Translations under genes and position numbers: made by a program
Notes under the pieces: model-generated
The model's database searches: none
What the model was told of the DNA's origin: nothing
The model's input: the letters and a program-made list of their open reading frames with translations, nothing else
Origin: Phenylobacterium sp.
Lineage (GTDB): Bacteria > Pseudomonadota > Alphaproteobacteria > Caulobacterales > Caulobacteraceae
Assembly (NCBI RefSeq): GCF_036495085.1
Contig: NZ_DASXNL010000008.1
Location: 30,015 to 94,014, forward strand
Length of the DNA: 64,000 nt
Direction: 5' to 3'
Shown here: piece by piece, positions 56,064 to 63,814 of the stretch
Numbering within the stretch: position 1 is the first letter of the stretch
How the letters are laid out: every line of letters begins with the position of its first letter

Positions 56064-56951
56064 CTACGCGTCGACGAGGTTCCGCTCCTCGGCGGCGGCT
56101 TTCATCGACTTCTGCAACTTCTCGAAGGCGCGTACTTCGATCTGGCGCACGCGCTCGCGGCTGACACCGTACTGAGAGGCGAGCTCTTCCAGGGTTGTGG
56201 GCTCGTCCTTCAACCGGCGCTCGGTCAGAATGTGCCGCTCGCGGTCCGTGAGCTCGGTCATGGCCTCCTCAAGGAGGCCCATCCGGAGCGACTTTTCCTG
56301 ACTGTCGGCGACAACGCTTTCCTGGCTGGGTGTCTTGTCGTCCACCAGCCAGTCCTGCCATTCGCTCTCGCTGTCGGCCCGCATGGGCGAGTTCAGTGAG
56401 GCGTCACCGCCGGAGAGGCGGCGGTTCATCGATACGACTTCCTCGTCCAGCACCCCCAGCTTGGTGGCGATCACGCTCACCTGGTCGGGGTGGAGGTCGC
56501 CCTCCTGAAGGGCGGAAATCTCGCTCTTCGCCTTGCGCAGGTTGAAGAACAGCTTCTTCTGCGCAGCGGTGGTGCCCATCTTCACCAGACTCCAGGAGCG
56601 CAGGATGTACTCCTGGATGGACGCGCGAATCCACCACATGGCGTAGGTCGCCAGGCGGAAGCCCTTGTCCGGGTCGAACTTCTTGACCGCCTGCATCAGA
56701 CCGACGTTGCCTTCGGAAATCACCTCACCGATCGGCAGGCCGTAGCCGCGATAGCCCATGGCGATCTTGGCCACGAGGCGCAGGTGGCTGGTCACCAGTC
56801 GATGGGCGGCGTCGGGATCCTCATGCTCCTGCCAGCGCTTGGCCAGCATGAACTCCTCGTCTTTCGCCAGCATCGGAAACTTGCGGATCTCGGACAGGTA
56901 TCGGCTGAGGCCGCCGTCCGGCGACATCACAGCTAGGGCGCTTGCGGCCAT
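56064..56951 (-). CDS. rpoH: RNA polymerase sigma-32 factor
   Basis: LVTSHLRLVAKIA, RpoH box QKKLFFNLRK, GVSRERVRQIE. Confidence 0.98.
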   Translation of the reverse strand: MAASALAVMSPDGGLSRYLSEIRKFPMLAKDEEFMLAKRWQEHEDPDAAHRLVTSHLRLVAKIAMGYRGYGLPIGEVISEGNVGLMQAVKKFDPDKGFRLATYAMWWIRASIQEYILRSWSLVKMGTTAAQKKLFFNLRKAKSEISALQEGDLHPDQVSVIATKLGVLDEEVVSMNRRLSGGDASLNSPMRADSESEWQDWLVDDKTPSQESVVADSQEKSLRMGLLEEAMTELTDRERHILTERRLKDEPTTLEELASQYGVSRERVRQIEVRAFEKLQKSMKAAAEERNLVDA

Positions 56952-57168: not shown

Positions 57169-59973
57169 TCACGAGAAGAGCTTGCGGAAGCTGATCCGCC
57201 AGGTCCGGCCAAGGGGGTCTATGTAGGCCGGCTGGAAGTTCAGGGGCGTCACGCCATTGGCGTCTCGAACCTCGACGCGCTCGTCGAAGATGTTGGACAC
57301 CGACAACGTGACCCGCGAGCCCTTCAACCAGGGCGCGCGGTCCATGAGGGCCGTGCGGCGACCAAGGTCGGCGAATACGCGGGCATTCACCTTCACGACG
57401 CCTGAAAAGCTCAGGTCGCTGGCGCCGTCGTCTGCGCCGCCGCGCACCATTGTGCCGATTTTCCAGTCGGCGTTGAGCTCAGCGCCGAAGCCTCGCTCGG
57501 CGATGTTTATCTGCGCCTGGATTTCGTGGCGCGGCTGGCCGCCGAGCCCCCCGAGCGAGGCGCCGTTGAGGAAGTCGAGCACCGGCCCTTCCGGGCCGAC
57601 GAGGTAGCGGTTTACGAAATAGACCGTGTGGAACACGCTGATGCGCAGTCGGCCGTCCCGCGAGCCGCCACGCCCGCCAAAGCCGCCGGACGGCGCGCCG
57701 GCGACGCCGTCCGGTGGTGGTCCGGCGAATTGCCCTGCGCCGCCGTCCGGGGCGGGCCCGTCAGGCGCTCGGCCCGGAGCGCCGGGCGGTCTCTGTTGCC
57801 GCGGCGTGGCACTCGGCGGAAGCGCGCGGCGGATCTGGACGAGCGCCGCATTGCGCGGCGGTGGGGCGGTGACGGGGCCGATCGGGCGAGAGTAGTCGAA
57901 GCCCCATTTCAAAGAGCTGACGTCCTGGCTGGCGAAATTGAGCGGGCGCTCGTCGACTTCGGTCAGATCGCCGTCGGCGTCGCGCAGGAAGCGGTCGGGA
58001 AAGGCGGCTTCGATGTCCGCTGTGACCGCCGGGAAGGTGGCTATCGGGTTCTTGTAATGGATCTTGTTGTAGTCGGCCCGGAAGATCAGCTGCTTGTCGG
58101 AAAAGGGCTGCCAGGTCACCCGGATCGAGGTGCGATAGCGATCGTCGGAGACCAAGTCCGGATTGCCGCCGGAGATCGCGGTGACGTCGACGGTCTGTCC
58201 GGTCACATAGTCGAAGATGCGCGTGCCCGGGGTGAGAAGCACTGTCGCGCCGAGTTGTTGCTGCGTCGGCGCACCCTGGTCGTGGAGGCGAGACGCCAGG
58301 ATGCTGAGGCCGGTGATCGGGGTCCAATGGACGCCGTAGCCGAAGGTGGTGAGCGTCCCAAAGTCGGATACGCTCTCAACGGCGGCATTGGCATTGAGAT
58401 TGATGTCTCCGAACATCGCCAGCACGTTGGCTTTTCTGCTGGTCAGGGGCACGTCGAAACTGGCTTGCAGATTGCCGCCGCTCCGAGTGAGGTCAGAGGA
58501 CAGCTCAACCCCGCCGCGTTGCGACTGCGAAGAAAACTCGCTCCCCGAAGCGCCGATTCGCAGGCTGGTCCGCACCGGTCCAGCCGGCATCTTGAACAGT
58601 ATTCCGGACGCTATGAACTGGATGTTGCCGCTGTCGGACTTCGAGTGGCTGGTGTCCTGGGGGCGCAGCGCCAGGAGGCTAGTGGGCAGCGCGCCGAACG
58701 GATTGACGCCAGGAGCGCCAGAGAGGAGCGCGTTCTGCAGGGCCGCCGGGTCGACTCCCAGGTCGTTGGCGTTGCGATTGTCCGCATGATCGTAGTTGCC
58801 GGTCAGCGCCAGCCGCCAACTGGCGACGTCGCGGTTGAAGCTGACACCAAGATGGCCGGTCCAGGTGTCGGCGCTCTGCTGCAGGGGGCCGAAATCCTGG
58901 ACGTAGCGGTCCAGCTGCACCGCTTCCGCAAAGGGCGAGAACGGGTCGGCGGCCGGGACCAGCAAACCTATCCCCGGCAGCCCGCGCTGGGCGTCGCTGG
59001 AGGTTGCTTCGAACGTGGCGTTCACGGTGGCGCTGATGTCAGCAAATATCGGGCGGGTAAGGGTCGCGTTGAGGGCGGCTTTTTGCGTTTCCGGCACGAG
59101 GGTGCGGAAGGCCCTGACGTCGGTCACGTTGGGGACGTTCGCAGTGGGAACGAAGTCGGAGAGCGTGAGGACCCGAGCGGCCACGCCCGCGGGGACGCCA
59201 GCGATCGTCACCCGTTGGCCGGCGAGCGCGCTCAGCGCCGGGTCGATCTCCCCACTGGACGTGGGCCCGAGCACATTGCCCGCCAGGTCGAACGGCGTGC
59301 CATTGGTAGGTGAGATCACGTCCCGCTGCGCCTCGGTCAACGAGGACTGGGTGTTGACCTTCAGGTTGATATTGAAGCGTTGCTCGCCTGCGATCCGTGT
59401 CGCGCTGAGCTCGGCCTGGCCGCTTGCTGCGCCGCCTGCGGTGGTCGCTCCGCCGCCCGCTTCGGCGGTCTGCGCGCCGAAGCTGGGCTTGAGCACGATG
59501 TTCACCACGCGCTGGTTGGCTGAGAAGCCGTACTTGAGCGCCGCCTCCTCAGGCAGAATGTCGACTCTCAGGATCGCCTCGGTAGGCAGGTTGCGGATCT
59601 CATTGAAGCCCGAGATGCGGCGGCCGTTGACCAGGATCGCGGGCCCCTCCCCGCCGCGCCCGCTGTTGCTGCCGATTTCCGGGGCCAGTTCGTCGAGTAG
59701 GTCCGTGATCGTGCTGACGCCGTAGGCCGCGACGTCCTCCGGCGCGAGCTGAAGGTCCGGCTTGATGTCGCCGACGACGGCGCCGGGCTCTGTGCGTGGC
59801 TCGGCGGTGACGACCAGTTCGGAGACGGTGCCGGGCTTGCCCACAATCGCGGACTCGGACGGGGCGGCCGCCGGCGCGGCGGCCGATGCGCTTGCCAGCA
59901 CAGCGAAGCCTGCGCTGGCGCACAGCTTTGCGGCCAGCCGGCGCCGAAAGGTCGTCAGGTCCGTAGAAATCAC
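57169..59973 (-). CDS. TonB-dependent outer-membrane receptor
   Basis: Signal peptide, TonB box VSELVVTA, plug ILVNGRR..IR.LP.EAI.RVDIL..YG..VVNIVL, C-terminal P.GRTW.ISFRKLF; start at GTG 59973 inferred. Confidence 0.88.
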   Translation of the reverse strand: MISTDLTTFRRRLAAKLCASAGFAVLASASAAAPAAAPSESAIVGKPGTVSELVVTAEPRTEPGAVVGDIKPDLQLAPEDVAAYGVSTITDLLDELAPEIGSNSGRGGEGPAILVNGRRISGFNEIRNLPTEAILRVDILPEEAALKYGFSANQRVVNIVLKPSFGAQTAEAGGGATTAGGAASGQAELSATRIAGEQRFNINLKVNTQSSLTEAQRDVISPTNGTPFDLAGNVLGPTSSGEIDPALSALAGQRVTIAGVPAGVAARVLTLSDFVPTANVPNVTDVRAFRTLVPETQKAALNATLTRPIFADISATVNATFEATSSDAQRGLPGIGLLVPAADPFSPFAEAVQLDRYVQDFGPLQQSADTWTGHLGVSFNRDVASWRLALTGNYDHADNRNANDLGVDPAALQNALLSGAPGVNPFGALPTSLLALRPQDTSHSKSDSGNIQFIASGILFKMPAGPVRTSLRIGASGSEFSSQSQRGGVELSSDLTRSGGNLQASFDVPLTSRKANVLAMFGDINLNANAAVESVSDFGTLTTFGYGVHWTPITGLSILASRLHDQGAPTQQQLGATVLLTPGTRIFDYVTGQTVDVTAISGGNPDLVSDDRYRTSIRVTWQPFSDKQLIFRADYNKIHYKNPIATFPAVTADIEAAFPDRFLRDADGDLTEVDERPLNFASQDVSSLKWGFDYSRPIGPVTAPPPRNAALVQIRRALPPSATPRQQRPPGAPGRAPDGPAPDGGAGQFAGPPPDGVAGAPSGGFGGRGGSRDGRLRISVFHTVYFVNRYLVGPEGPVLDFLNGASLGGLGGQPRHEIQAQINIAERGFGAELNADWKIGTMVRGGADDGASDLSFSGVVKVNARVFADLGRRTALMDRAPWLKGSRVTLSVSNIFDERVEVRDANGVTPLNFQPAYIDPLGRTWRISFRKLFS

Positions 59974-60125: not shown

Positions 60126-61148
60126 TCAGAGTTGCTCGAGCAACGCCTGCAGCGTTGCGATGTCCGGCGGCAAGGGGCTCTCGAACCTCAGGACCTCGCC
60201 AGTGACCGGATGGCGGAAGCCGAGCACGGCAGCATGCAGCGCTTGGCGCTTCAGGCCCGCCTCGGCGATCGCGGCGCGGACCTTTTCCGCAGGTGGGCCT
60301 GAGCCGTAGGTGGGGTCGCCCAAGCATGGCGCGCCGGCCGAGGCGAGATGCACACGGATCTGGTGGGTGCGGCCGGTCTCCAGGGTGCAGGCGACGCGGG
60401 CGGCCAGAGGCTTTTCCTTGGCGCCGAAGGTCCGCTCGACGGCGTAGTGGGTGACCGCGTGACGCCCGCCGGATTTCACCAGGGCCATCTTCTTCCGATC
60501 GCTGGACGAACGCGCGATGGCGCCCTCAATGGTTCCACGGCTGGCCCGCGGCGCGCCGCGGGTGAGCGCGATGTAAACCCGATCGATGGCATGCGCGGCG
60601 AACAGGGCAGAGAGCCCGTTGTGGGCCGCGTCAGTCTTGGCGGCGACGACAATGCCGGAGGTGTCCTTGTCGATCCGGTGCACGATCCCCGGCCGCGCCA
60701 CGCCGCCGATACCCGAGAGGCTCGCGCCGCAGTGATGCAAGAGCGCGTTGACGAGGGTGCCGCTCTCGCTTCCGGGCGCCGGATGGACCGCCATGCCGGC
60801 CGGCTTGTCGACCACGATCAGGTCGGCGTCTTCGAAGAGCACGCTTAGGGGGATCGCCTCGGGGGCCGGCTCAGCAGCCACCGGAGGCGGGATCTCCAGG
60901 CGATAGGCGCCGGGCAGCGCCTTACCCGAGGCGTCGTTGACCGGCACGTGGTCGCGCCTGACGCGCCCCTGGGAGATAAGCGCCTGGATCCGGGCGCGTG
61001 ACATATCCGGCAAGAGGTCGGCCAGCATCTTGTCGACCCGCCCGCCAGCCTCGTCCGGGCCAACCGTCAGCAGCCGCACGCCGACGGCTTCGCCGCCGCC
61101 GCCATCAGGGTCGTCGCCGTCCGGGACGTCGGGCGAGTCAACGGCCAT
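60126..61148 (-). CDS. rluD: RluA family 23S rRNA pseudouridine synthase
   Basis: S4 domain, VVDKPAGM.VHP, GIVHRIDKDTSG, TGRTHQIRVH, RQALHA. Confidence 0.95.
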   Translation of the reverse strand: MAVDSPDVPDGDDPDGGGGEAVGVRLLTVGPDEAGGRVDKMLADLLPDMSRARIQALISQGRVRRDHVPVNDASGKALPGAYRLEIPPPVAAEPAPEAIPLSVLFEDADLIVVDKPAGMAVHPAPGSESGTLVNALLHHCGASLSGIGGVARPGIVHRIDKDTSGIVVAAKTDAAHNGLSALFAAHAIDRVYIALTRGAPRASRGTIEGAIARSSSDRKKMALVKSGGRHAVTHYAVERTFGAKEKPLAARVACTLETGRTHQIRVHLASAGAPCLGDPTYGSGPPAEKVRAAIAEAGLKRQALHAAVLGFRHPVTGEVLRFESPLPPDIATLQALLEQL

Positions 61149-61455
61149 GCTTGCCGCTGGCGTCTTCCTCGCGACCGGTGATCGAGCCTTCGCTGAACAG
61201 ATACTTCTTGAGCTGCTCGTTCACTTCACCGTCGTTGCGACGAATCCACTCCAGCACCATGGCCGCATGCTCCAATTCCTCGTGCGCGTTGTGCAGCAGG
61301 ATCGCCTTGAGACCTGGGTCGTCGCAGTCGTCGGCGCGCTGGCGATACCAGTCGACGGCCTCGAACTCCTCGATCAGCGAGGTGGTGGCATAGTGTAGGT
61401 TCAGCGTTTCACGACGCAGCTTCTCACGTGGAACGTGCAGGGCTTCACTGGACAC
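61138..61455 (-). CDS. Encapsulated-ferritin (EncFtn)-type ferritin-like protein
   Basis: SLIEEFEAVDWYRQR and HNAHEELEHAAMVLEWIRR match the EncFtn ferroxidase pattern; GTG start with RBS GGAGAG. Confidence 0.9.
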   Translation of the reverse strand: MSSEALHVPREKLRRETLNLHYATTSLIEEFEAVDWYRQRADDCDDPGLKAILLHNAHEELEHAAMVLEWIRRNDGEVNEQLKKYLFSEGSITGREEDASGKHGR

Positions 61456-61529
61456 GGGGGCTCGCTCTCCTGTGATATTTTCAGCCTTAATACGTGGGCG
61501 TGAGAACAAGCGCGAGGGCGGGGCCAGGG

Positions 61530-63191
61530 ATGCGGATCGACAGGCGCAGGGCATTGGCCTTGCTGGGTCTGGGCGCGGCGGCGCCCGCAACGCGGGTCGC
61601 CGCGCGAGAGGGCCGCGCCTTCCGGCACGGTGTGGCCTCGGGCGATCCGTTGCAGGACCGGGTGATCCTTTGGACCCGCATCACACCGTCCGGCGCCGGT
61701 GAGGTGGCCTATAGCTGGAGCCTCAATCCGACCGACCGAAGGGGGGGCGGCGCCAAGCGCGGCCAGGGCATCACCGGCGCCGATCGCGACTACACGGTGA
61801 AGGTGGACGTGTCCGGCCTAGACCCGGCGCGGGCCTACAGCTTCCAGTTCGAGGCGGGCGGGGTGAAGTCGCCGGTTGGTCGCACCAGGACCCTACCGGT
61901 GGGGCCGACCAAGGACGCGGTCCTCGCGGTCTGCACCTGCGCGCTCTATCCCAACGGCTACTTCAACGCCTACGGCGCGATAGCCGCCCTGCCCAGGGTC
62001 GATGCGGTCCTGCATCTGGGCGACTACATCTACGAATACGGTGGGCCTGGCTCTTACGGCATGGATAGCGCCGTGGCCGGCGAGCGGCCGCACGACCCGC
62101 CGCACGAATGCCTGAGCCTCGCCGACTACAGGCGCCGTCACGCGCAGTACAAGACCGACCCTCAGCTGCAGGCCGCGCACGCCCGCGCGCCCTGGATCGT
62201 CGTGTGGGACGATCAAGAGACGGCGAATGACAGCTGGATGGGTGGAGCCGAGAACCACCAGCCGGCAGCGGAGGGTGACTGGAACGTCCGCAAGGCGGCC
62301 GCTATCAAGGCCTACTACGAGTGGATGCCGATACGCGAACCGGCGGGCGGCGGCTTCTCCATCAACCGCAGCTTCGACTTCGGTGACCTGGCCAGCCTGT
62401 TCATGCTGGAGACCCGGCTTACCGCCCGCGACCACCAGCTTTATCCCGACAAGGAGATGCCAGCCGCGCCGACTGCCGCAGACTTGGCGGCGTGGCGTCA
62501 GCGCTCGGCCGATCCTGCGCGCAAGATGATGTCGACAAGCCAGGAGGCATGGCTTGGCAAGGAGCTGGCCGCCTCGGTGAAATCCGGGCGTCCCTGGCAG
62601 GTCATCGGCAACGAGGTGGTGATGGCCAGGCTCGTCACCCCGCCTATCCACAAATACATGAGCGGTGAGGCTTATGCCGCCGCCAAGGCGGCGCTGACGC
62701 GCGCCGGCGTAAATCGGTTGGGGCGCATCGAGGCGAATGCGGCGCTGGGGCTGCCCTGGGGCGCCGACATGTGGGATGGATACCCTGCCGATCGCGCGCG
62801 GCTGTACAGCCTGATCCAGAAGGCCCGCGCCAACGCCATCGTGGTTTCCGGCGACAGCCACGCCTTTTGGGCCAATGAGCTCTACGACGCCGAGACCGGC
62901 GGCAAGCGAGTGGCGGTCGAGTTTGGGACGGCCGGGATCAGCTCGCCGGGGCCCGGTCTTTCCATCGCCTCGATCCCGCTGGGTGATGCTTTCGCCAGGC
63001 ACAATCGCGAGGTGCTCTTCAACCAGCAGACCGCCAACGGCTTCGTGCTGCTGACCCTTACCCATGCCCAGGCGACCGGCGAACTCGTGGCCGTCTCCAG
63101 CGTCAAGGACCGGGCCTTTACGACCAAGGCGATCGCGACCTACCGCGCCACGCCGGGTCCAGCCGGCGTGTCGGGATTGAAGGCGGTTTAG
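61530..63191 (+). CDS. phoD: PhoD-like alkaline phosphatase D (Tat-exported)
   Basis: Twin-Arg signal DRRRALALL; FRHGVASGDP, HLGDYIYE, WDDQE (canonical WDDHE), WDGY, SGDSH. Confidence 0.92.
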   Translation: MRIDRRRALALLGLGAAAPATRVAAREGRAFRHGVASGDPLQDRVILWTRITPSGAGEVAYSWSLNPTDRRGGGAKRGQGITGADRDYTVKVDVSGLDPARAYSFQFEAGGVKSPVGRTRTLPVGPTKDAVLAVCTCALYPNGYFNAYGAIAALPRVDAVLHLGDYIYEYGGPGSYGMDSAVAGERPHDPPHECLSLADYRRRHAQYKTDPQLQAAHARAPWIVVWDDQETANDSWMGGAENHQPAAEGDWNVRKAAAIKAYYEWMPIREPAGGGFSINRSFDFGDLASLFMLETRLTARDHQLYPDKEMPAAPTAADLAAWRQRSADPARKMMSTSQEAWLGKELAASVKSGRPWQVIGNEVVMARLVTPPIHKYMSGEAYAAAKAALTRAGVNRLGRIEANAALGLPWGADMWDGYPADRARLYSLIQKARANAIVVSGDSHAFWANELYDAETGGKRVAVEFGTAGISSPGPGLSIASIPLGDAFARHNREVLFNQQTANGFVLLTLTHAQATGELVAVSSVKDRAFTTKAIATYRATPGPAGVSGLKAV

Positions 63192-63814
63192 CGGCGCTCC
63201 AGCGCCAGGCGCACGCCGAAGGCCAGGAAGACGCCGCCGGTGAGCCGGTCCAACCAACGCACGATGCTCGCCCGCTGCAACGCGCCAGCGATCGGTCGGG
63301 TCGCGCCGATCAGGCAAGCCGACCAGGCCAGGCCGAGCGCCGCATGGATCGCCGCCAGCAGAAAGATGAAGGGCGCCGGGGAGACGCCGTTCGCCAGGAA
63401 CTGCGGCAGAAACGAGATGTAGAAGACGCCGACCTTGGGGTTCAGGAGGTTGGTGAGGAGTCCGCGTCGCATCCAGACGATGTCGCTGCCGGCCAATTTC
63501 GGGCCACCAGCAAGCTCGAACCGCGCGCGGGGCTTTAGGATCAGGTTGAGGCCGAGCCAGACGAGATAGCCGGCCCCCACCCACTTGAGGACGGCGAAGG
63601 CGAACGTCGAGGCGGTGATGAGGGCGCCCAGGCCCAGGGCCACGGCCGCGCCCCAAACCAGGCAGCCGGTTATGATTCCCGCCGCAGCGAAGCCCGCTCG
63701 TTTGGGCCCTTCGACCGCCGCGGTCCGCAGGATCAGCGCGGTGTCCAGGCCCGGGGTCAGCGTCAGCAGGCCGGCAGCGACCAGATAAGCGAGGAGGGCC
63801 TGGGTGACGGTCAT
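63188..63814 (-). CDS. LysE/RhtB family translocator
   Basis: [36 protein letters not shown]. Confidence 0.93.

Follow-up and report, generated by a model that had tools for sequence, protein, structure and literature searches.

A shell-less, tag-less EncFtn-like ferritin gene between phoD and rluD in Phenylobacterium: one more member of an already named class

Introduction

The closest described systems are the EncFtns of Rhodospirillum rubrum (Rru_A0973, PDB 5DA5) and Haliangium ochraceum (5N5F/7OE2), which are encapsulin cargo proteins of the FLP-TP type. They end in a linker of 20-40 residues and an SLGIGSLK targeting peptide, and their genes lie directly upstream of that of an iron-storing family-1 encapsulin. 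Tag-less R. rubrum EncFtn assembles on iron as a D5 decamer and oxidizes Fe2+, with at most about 48 Fe per decamer and no mineral core; iron storage by this protein needs the shell (PMC5012862). Bacterioferritin and Dps are closed 24-mer or 12-mer cages that mineralize iron; EncFtn, by contrast, forms an open ring that does not store any (PMC5012862).

Untagged relatives have been named 'Non-EncFtn' by He et al. in 2016 (PMC5012862) and 's-FLP' in a 2024 review, where their encapsulation status is given as unknown (PMC11202242). The prototype is the tag-less NE0167 of Nitrosomonas europaea (PDB 3K6C), which crystallizes as a decamer (PMC11202242). No functional study of shell-less EncFtn relatives was found in the literature.

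Here we describe an EncFtn-like gene in a window from Phenylobacterium sp., the window being the whole stretch of 64,000 nucleotides that was analyzed. The original prediction for this locus was that of an orphan encapsulated ferritin, independent of a shell and coexpressed with the rRNA-modifying enzyme encoded by rluD, upstream of a TonB-dependent receptor (TBDR) gene and rpoH. The features of the locus are collected in Table 1.

Table 1. Features around the EncFtn-like gene, in window coordinates.
Feature	Position	Strand	Description
rpoH (sigma-32)	56064..56951	-	TIGR02392, 373.6 bits (cut-off 323.1)
ORF between rluD and rpoH (the predicted TBDR)	57169..59943	-	924 aa; start inferred; sub-threshold Plug match only, 18.7 bits (cut-off 23.9)
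rluD-type 23S rRNA pseudouridine synthase	60126..61148	-	340 aa; TIGR00005, 277 bits; PF00849 and S4 domain
11-nt overlap ATGGCCGTTGA	61138..61148	-	rluD ATG at 61148, inside last codons and stop of EncFtn-like gene
EncFtn-like gene	61138..61455 (including stop codon)	-	105 aa; GTG start; no targeting peptide
Divergent spacer, phoD / EncFtn-like gene	61456..61529	.	74 bp; ACAGGAG ribosome-binding site, TAnnnT-like element; no Fur box
phoD	61530..63191	+	PhoD-family phosphatase; PF09423, 324 bits; PF16655, 87 bits; twin-arginine leader MRIDRRRALALLGLGAAAP

Results

Fold and active site

The GTG start codon of the EncFtn-like gene is supported by the ribosome-binding site in front of it and by the orthologues, which begin with MSSE(A/G)LH at the same place. 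The encoded protein matches the Pfam EncFtn-like family PF22277 over model positions 2-85 of 85 with 124 bits (cut-off 27). A phmmer search of the PDB with this protein returned H. ochraceum EncFtn (7oe2, E 7e-31), R. rubrum EncFtn (5da5, E 4e-30) and the untagged NE0167 (3k6c, E 4e-23). In Foldseek alignments it shares 55-58% of its residues, across the complete core, with the EncFtn structures from R. rubrum and H. ochraceum. A weak match to the Pfam Rubrerythrin family, of 25.3 bits, was also present. An AlphaFold2 model, built on an alignment of 27 sequences and with a mean pLDDT of 89, superimposes in Foldseek on the chains of 5DA5 with an rmsd of 0.9-1.0 Å over 88-89 residues and on 3K6C with an rmsd of 1.1 Å. 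The helices predicted at residues 15-42, 47-74 and 76-85 are the two long antiparallel helices and the short C-terminal helix of the EncFtn fold.

Residue numbers were set by alignment to R. rubrum EncFtn. The ferroxidase-center residues Glu32, Glu62, His65 and Tyr39 of that enzyme correspond to Glu30, Glu60, His63 and Tyr37 of the window protein, the entry-site residues Glu31, Glu34 and Trp38 to Glu29, Glu32 and Trp36, and His57, Glu61 and Glu64 to His55, Glu59 and Glu62. All ten residues are invariant throughout the 27-sequence alignment, which covers tagged and untagged relatives. Ferroxidase-center, entry-site and putative exit-site residues are identical to those of the R. rubrum and H. 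ochraceum EncFtns. The ferroxidase pattern that had been called intact is indeed complete. Judged from sequence and model, the window protein is a two-helix protomer in which every ligand of the di-iron ferroxidase center is retained, and it may be expected to have ferroxidase activity. This predicted activity of a di-iron ferroxidase center held by four helices would be shared with the classical bacterioferritin and Dps cages, as would a part in the detoxification of iron.

The C-terminal tail

The window protein matches TIGR04535, the NCBIfam model of encapsulin-associated ferritins, only at model positions 2-98 of 114 and with 110.7 bits against a cut-off of 125. Since the alignment stops at position 98 and the score stays below the cut-off, the targeting-peptide part is missing. 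The alignment leads to the same conclusion: encapsulin-linked relatives run on with a linker of 15-30 residues followed by SLGIGSL(K/R), and the window protein stops where this linker begins, with a C-terminus, ITGREEDASGKHGR, that ends 8-14 residues past the core. The absence of an LGIGSL-type cargo-loading peptide, which had been claimed from the sequence, is thus confirmed, and the 105-residue product is a short EncFtn in the sense that its core is followed neither by a long disordered C-terminus nor by a targeting peptide.

Two other positions for a loading signal were considered and rejected. The final residues SGKHGR do not qualify as a cryptic targeting peptide, as the protein varies between 100 and 105 residues within the genus and its last residues coincide with the overlap with the rluD start in most loci. 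The N-terminus is collinear with those of the R. rubrum and H. ochraceum EncFtns and shows no extension that could hold a loading peptide.

Search for an encapsulin shell

No encapsulin gene adjoins the EncFtn-like gene. In the assembly of the organism itself, which consists of 197 contigs and is 95.6% complete, the family-1 encapsulin model PF04454 gave no match, and tblastn searches with three alphaproteobacterial encapsulins gave a best E value of 0.36. The NCBIfam model for family 2A encapsulins also had no match in this genome, in a search that had no positive control. None of the 37 Phenylobacterium genomes sampled contains a family-1 encapsulin, and 20 of them carry the EncFtn-like gene; likewise, no PF04454 match above the Pfam cut-off occurred in any of 61 related genomes, including two EncFtn-positive ones that are closed or near-closed (G009 and G016). 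Because these two carriers are among the 37 shell-less genomes, the caveat that attaches to the completeness of the organism's own assembly is removed at the level of the genus. The lack of an adjacent shell gene is therefore upheld and the shell independence in the original prediction is supported, and an encapsulin elsewhere in the genome that loads the protein through an N-terminal peptide, named there as one refuting observation, was seen in neither of its parts. The genome encodes, in addition, a bacterioferritin (Bfr) outside the locus and a rubrerythrin-like protein, and no Dps was found in it.

The window protein thus resembles the s-FLP/Non-EncFtn prototype NE0167 in its EncFtn fold, intact di-iron center, short C-terminus, missing targeting peptide and missing partner shell. 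It differs from the NE0167 type, which has 95 residues and ends in LFTDKPIAHE, by a length of 105 residues and a further acidic segment, the one given above as its C-terminus. From the R. rubrum and H. ochraceum EncFtns it is set apart by having neither linker nor targeting peptide and by the lack of a family-1 encapsulin gene directly downstream.

Shell-less EncFtn proteins in Alphaproteobacteria

To place the gene in its class, 401 alphaproteobacterial genomes sampled evenly across the class were surveyed. PF22277 matched in 74 of these (71 strong matches), an encapsulin was present in 25, and 23 had both, which leaves 51 of the 74 EncFtn-bearing genomes (69%) without a family-1 shell. The premise that an encapsulin is the usual neighbor of an EncFtn fails for Alphaproteobacteria. 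In all 23 genomes that possess both genes, no more than a few hundred bases separate the EncFtn gene from that of the shell, and an SLGIGSL-type tail is found on all sampled EncFtn copies from these genomes. Shell-less proteins are spread over many alphaproteobacterial families.

Three classes can be distinguished by their tails: the NE0167 type of 95 residues, a short-tail type of 100-105 residues that ends around ITxLEExAMGRxx and includes the Phenylobacterium proteins, and the tagged EncFtn proteins. A maximum-likelihood tree, based on only 98 columns and with 59 of 107 inner branches unresolved, contains a split with SH-aLRT support of 95 between 40 and 71 rows. The 40-row side holds the Phenylobacterium and other short-tail orphans and the 71-row side the NE0167-like and tagged proteins, so that on these 98 columns the window protein lies with the 100-105-residue orphans, across the supported branch from NE0167. 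Several conserved core positions differ as well; for example, HNMREEIEH in the shell-less clade replaces HNRDEEKEH of the tagged EncFtns.

The surroundings of shell-less genes in other families are not conserved. At 20 such loci, examined over 6 kb to either side, only the EncFtn gene itself recurs widely and no partner gene is conserved, iron or redox genes included; the immediate neighbors are a mixture of MFS, DAO, SDR, ETF-QO, CysRS and other genes.

Overlap with rluD and local gene order

The 11-nucleotide overlap between the EncFtn stop and the rluD start that had been predicted is present. Counted from the last base of the EncFtn stop, the rluD ATG is at exactly -11 in 12 of the 19 loci compared within the genus; the remaining loci have offsets of -4, +1, +1, +19, +19, +50 and +201. 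A survey of 80 species-level Caulobacteraceae loci with an EncFtn-like gene, taken from named records, found rluD at -11 in 27 and within 250 nucleotides in a further 22. Carriers of an orthologue include Phenylobacterium kunshanense BUT-10, P. deserti YIM 73061 and P. ferrooxidans HK31-G. At 14 of the 16 orthologous loci labeled Caulobacter rluD is absent; in Caulobacter sp. ErkDOM-C, the EncFtn-like gene is monocistronic, and the next gene, which is convergent, encodes a TonB-dependent receptor. Near 50 EncFtn-like loci of other alphaproteobacterial families no rluD was found, with the exception of one at a distance of about 2.5 kb. Neither a terminator nor a promoter-like site was detected between the EncFtn-like gene and rluD.

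The conserved overlapping start and the single shared upstream region make coexpression with rluD, as originally proposed, plausible, but a functional tie does not follow, as the arrangement is confined to Phenylobacterium-like genomes. The overlap is conserved at the 27 loci; rluD is absent from most Caulobacter loci, and other families have no conserved partner at all. The gene rpoH is located downstream as stated, with a TIGR02392 score above the cut-off. The intervening ORF of 924 residues matched no Pfam or NCBIfam family at E<=1e-3, and its label as a TBDR is no more than tentative. A functional link to rluD, the TBDR or rpoH, which the original description implied, finds no support in this lineage-limited arrangement. 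Coupling of the EncFtn-like gene to rluD does exist, but as synteny specific to one lineage; it reflects how the genes are ordered and not a functional partnership.

The divergent phoD gene and the shared spacer

The most conserved neighbor is the divergent phoD gene, which is present at 65 of 80 Caulobacteraceae loci, at 37 of 41 in Phenylobacterium and at 15 of 16 in Caulobacter. The spacer that separates it from the EncFtn-like gene measures 62-120 bp across the Caulobacteraceae loci, and phoD is kept at loci from which rluD is absent. This genome has only one copy of phoD. Outside the Caulobacteraceae the association disappears: the 50 EncFtn-like loci of other alphaproteobacterial families have no phoD nearby.

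The elements listed for the spacer in Table 1 were read from an alignment of 55 spacers and a comparison of upstream regions. Upstream of the EncFtn-like gene, the best match to a Fur box has 9 mismatches in 19 positions, close to the mean of shuffled sequences, no other recognizable iron or oxidative-stress operator was found, and a scan for sigma-70 consensus promoters gave no match. Inspection of the spacer by eye revealed no Pho box. A terminator-like hairpin at 61453-61474 was rejected: found on the + strand alone, it needs G-T pairs and therefore does not form in the EncFtn mRNA.

Patchy presence within the genus

About half of the Phenylobacterium genomes (17 of 37) have no EncFtn-like gene. 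Among the genomes without the gene, phoD falls inside the sampled flank in eight, and in all of these it directly adjoins rluD in divergent orientation; at three more EncFtn-less loci, phoD is missing from the nearest 1.5 kb. Two of the EncFtn-less genomes retain traces of the gene. In G004, rluD directly follows a sequence homologous to positions -77 to +6 of the EncFtn start, ribosome-binding site included, with 76% identity. G029 has lost the body of the EncFtn gene and retains its upstream region and first 12 nucleotides. Genomes that keep the gene maintain it by purifying selection, the median dN/dS being 0.18 over 190 pairwise comparisons within the genus. A complementary distribution with classical ferritins was considered and discarded, since EncFtn-positive and EncFtn-negative genomes have on average 1.15 and 1.12 PF00210 genes, respectively. 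That 17 congeners lack the EncFtn-like gene, irrespective of how many classical ferritin genes they have, indicates that it is dispensable.

In the simplest reading of the gene order, the divergent pair of phoD and the EncFtn-like gene would be ancestral. The rluD gene would have arrived downstream in the Phenylobacterium lineage, where it came to be read from the EncFtn promoter with translational coupling, and the EncFtn gene would afterwards have been deleted at least twice. In present-day Phenylobacterium, rluD would be carried on the EncFtn transcript and coupled in translation through the 11-nucleotide overlap, the transcript itself starting from a compact promoter in the 74-bp spacer shared with phoD.

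Discussion

The locus is a genuine but ordinary find: shell-less and tag-less forms have already been described, and they are the commoner state in Alphaproteobacteria.

We consider it most likely, with a probability of roughly 0.55, that the protein, a shell-independent version of the EncFtn fold, forms a free ferroxidase ring in the cytosol and thereby lowers labile Fe2+. This is judged the best explanation because the active-site residues and the fold are identical to those of R. rubrum EncFtn. Protomers would pair through a shared Glu/Glu/His di-iron site, as in tag-less R. rubrum EncFtn and NE0167, and the pairs would assemble into an open ring of ten. Such a ring would oxidize cytosolic Fe2+ with O2 or H2O2, neither mineralizing nor storing iron, and would serve as a soluble ferroxidase and Fe2+ buffer. 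The Fe3+ produced would be taken over by other acceptors, such as the bacterioferritin encoded outside the locus.

Some observations do not fit easily with a free ferroxidase ring. An enzyme that releases insoluble Fe3+ is not obviously a useful device. The lack of a Fur box or another iron or oxidative-stress operator, and of conserved iron or redox neighbors, also counts against it, as does the absence of the gene from almost half of the congeners, with the 95.6% completeness of the organism's own assembly to be kept in mind.

Alternatively, the same four-helix di-iron site could support other chemistry, for instance that of a rubrerythrin-like peroxide reductase or a scavenger of O2 or NO. 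This would be in agreement with the weak Rubrerythrin match and with the departures of the shell-less clade at conserved core positions, and it would avoid the problem that a free ferroxidase has no evident store to feed. However, all EncFtn ferroxidase and entry-site residues that have been proven by mutagenesis are invariant, and the neighborhood offers no rubredoxin or reductase partner. We regard such chemistry as unlikely.

A second proposal starts from the phoD gene. B. subtilis PhoD holds one Fe3+ together with two Ca2+, and cytoplasmic insertion of the iron has been proposed by those who solved its structure (PMC4223295); PhoD enzymes are exported by the Tat system. In Caulobacteraceae, the ring could be a cytoplasmic supplier of Fe3+ to PhoD as it folds before export. 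The twin-arginine leader of the window PhoD, its status as the sole copy in the genome and the persistence of the short divergent arrangement at loci without rluD are all compatible with this. Against it stands that the adjacency is seen in one family only and may reflect inheritance of a gene order which the very short spacer protects, and that phoD is absent from the loci of other families. Moreover, Phenylobacterium species without the EncFtn gene retain phoD at the same place, and a Pho box was not recognized in the spacer by eye. We therefore treat the phoD linkage as a lead and not as a result, and consider a role in PhoD maturation improbable as matters stand.

The patchy distribution raises the question whether the gene is left over from an encapsulin system that was lost, is now disappearing itself and does little at present. 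The 17 congeners without the gene, the remnant of 12 nucleotides in G029, the position of rluD against the EncFtn start region in G004, and the lack of a link with the number of classical ferritin genes can all be read in this way. A decaying gene would, however, not be expected to show a median dN/dS of 0.18 and invariant catalytic residues, nor would a relic explain a shell-less clade that is widespread in many alphaproteobacterial families, and little weight can be given to this explanation.

It is more doubtful still that the protein is encapsulated after all, in an unrecognized shell or a distant encapsulin, with a non-canonical signal at the N-terminus or in the short acidic tail. The review of the family leaves room for a binding sequence of undefined nature in short tails (PMC11202242), and an assembly that is 95.6% complete could lack a shell gene. 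Yet PF04454 has no match above the cut-off in the 61 related genomes, closed ones included, the family 2A search (without positive control) and tblastn (E >= 0.36) were negative, neither a capsid-like nor any other conserved neighbor was seen at the 20 loci of other families, and the N-terminus is collinear with those of tagged EncFtns.

Least credible of all is that the protein works together with RluD, or in ribosome biogenesis and the heat-shock regulon: the overlap kept at a third of the family loci (27 of 80, with rluD close by in 22 more) and rpoH downstream on the same strand would fit, but rluD is absent from most Caulobacter loci and from the surroundings of orphans in other families (save the one about 2.5 kb away), 17 of 37 congeners have a functioning rluD and no EncFtn, with G004 using the same promoter for it, and RluA-family pseudouridine synthases are not known to require a metal.

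The window protein is one more member of a large and already named shell-less EncFtn class. Shell-less forms outnumber encapsulated ones about two to one in Alphaproteobacteria, where the survey shows a clean split in which the tag goes with an adjacent shell and the absence of the tag with the absence of a shell anywhere in the genome. As most members of the family are shell-less, the name 'encapsulated ferritin' is misleading for most of them. The pairing with phoD in Caulobacteraceae, which encodes an Fe3+-dependent, Tat-exported phosphatase, provides one concrete hypothesis on what a free ferroxidase ring that does not store iron may be for. If the supply of iron to PhoD proved true, it would be the first physiological role for the shell-less EncFtn class, and the ring would be the first maturation factor for Fe3+/Ca2+ alkaline phosphatases, linking the acquisition of iron to that of phosphorus.

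Other ferritin-superfamily proteins and the rluD–rpoH interval

Besides the EncFtn-like protein, the ferritin-superfamily complement of the genome carrying the window (G000) consists of a rubrerythrin-like protein, whose gene on contig C195 adjoins that of a 460-aa Cys-rich Fe–S-type oxidoreductase, and a single Bfr on contig C186; Dps was not found in this genome. At E ≤ 1e-3, neither Pfam nor NCBIfam had a family matching the 924-aa ORF that the original prediction labelled a TBDR; the ORF's sole signal was a Plug match below threshold (18.7 bits). Its product is a large unclassified protein, probably exported.

Features considered in the window and elsewhere in the genome
Feature	Position	Strand	Remark
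phoD and spacer to EncFtn-like gene	window 61456-63191	+	compared across loci L089-L168
LysE/RhtB-type amino-acid exporter gene	window 63188-63808	-	convergent with phoD; PF01810, 105.7 bits
924-aa ORF	window 57169-59943	-	between rluD and rpoH
Rubrerythrin-like protein, 138 aa	contig C195:31551-31697; locus L055, 1501-1917	-	

Conserved neighbours and probable losses of the EncFtn-like gene

The EncFtn-like gene and rluD do not overlap in several Phenylobacterium species (L092, L094, L109, L111, L115, L123, L143, L161), where rluD is found 1.4-1.8 kb downstream; an insertion therefore separates the two genes at these loci. Start-region remnants persist in Phenylobacterium genomes lacking the EncFtn-like gene, as seen by comparing L056, L059 and L067 with loci L016 and L008. 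The EncFtn promoter, RBS and start are fused to rluD in G004 (L056), the first 12 nt of the gene are retained in G029 (L059), and G021 (L067) has a stretch resembling VSRAQALHASPE (by eye only). Taken together, these sequence remnants suggest that the gene was deleted independently at least twice in Phenylobacterium.

Among 80 species-level Caulobacteraceae loci with the EncFtn-like gene, phoD is its most conserved neighbour, exceeding rluD; it is present and divergent in 65, with a spacer of 62-120 bp. PhoD enzymes require Fe3+ and are exported via Tat (PMC4223295). These properties, together with the conserved adjacency, suggest that a maturation link between the EncFtn-like protein and PhoD is possible.
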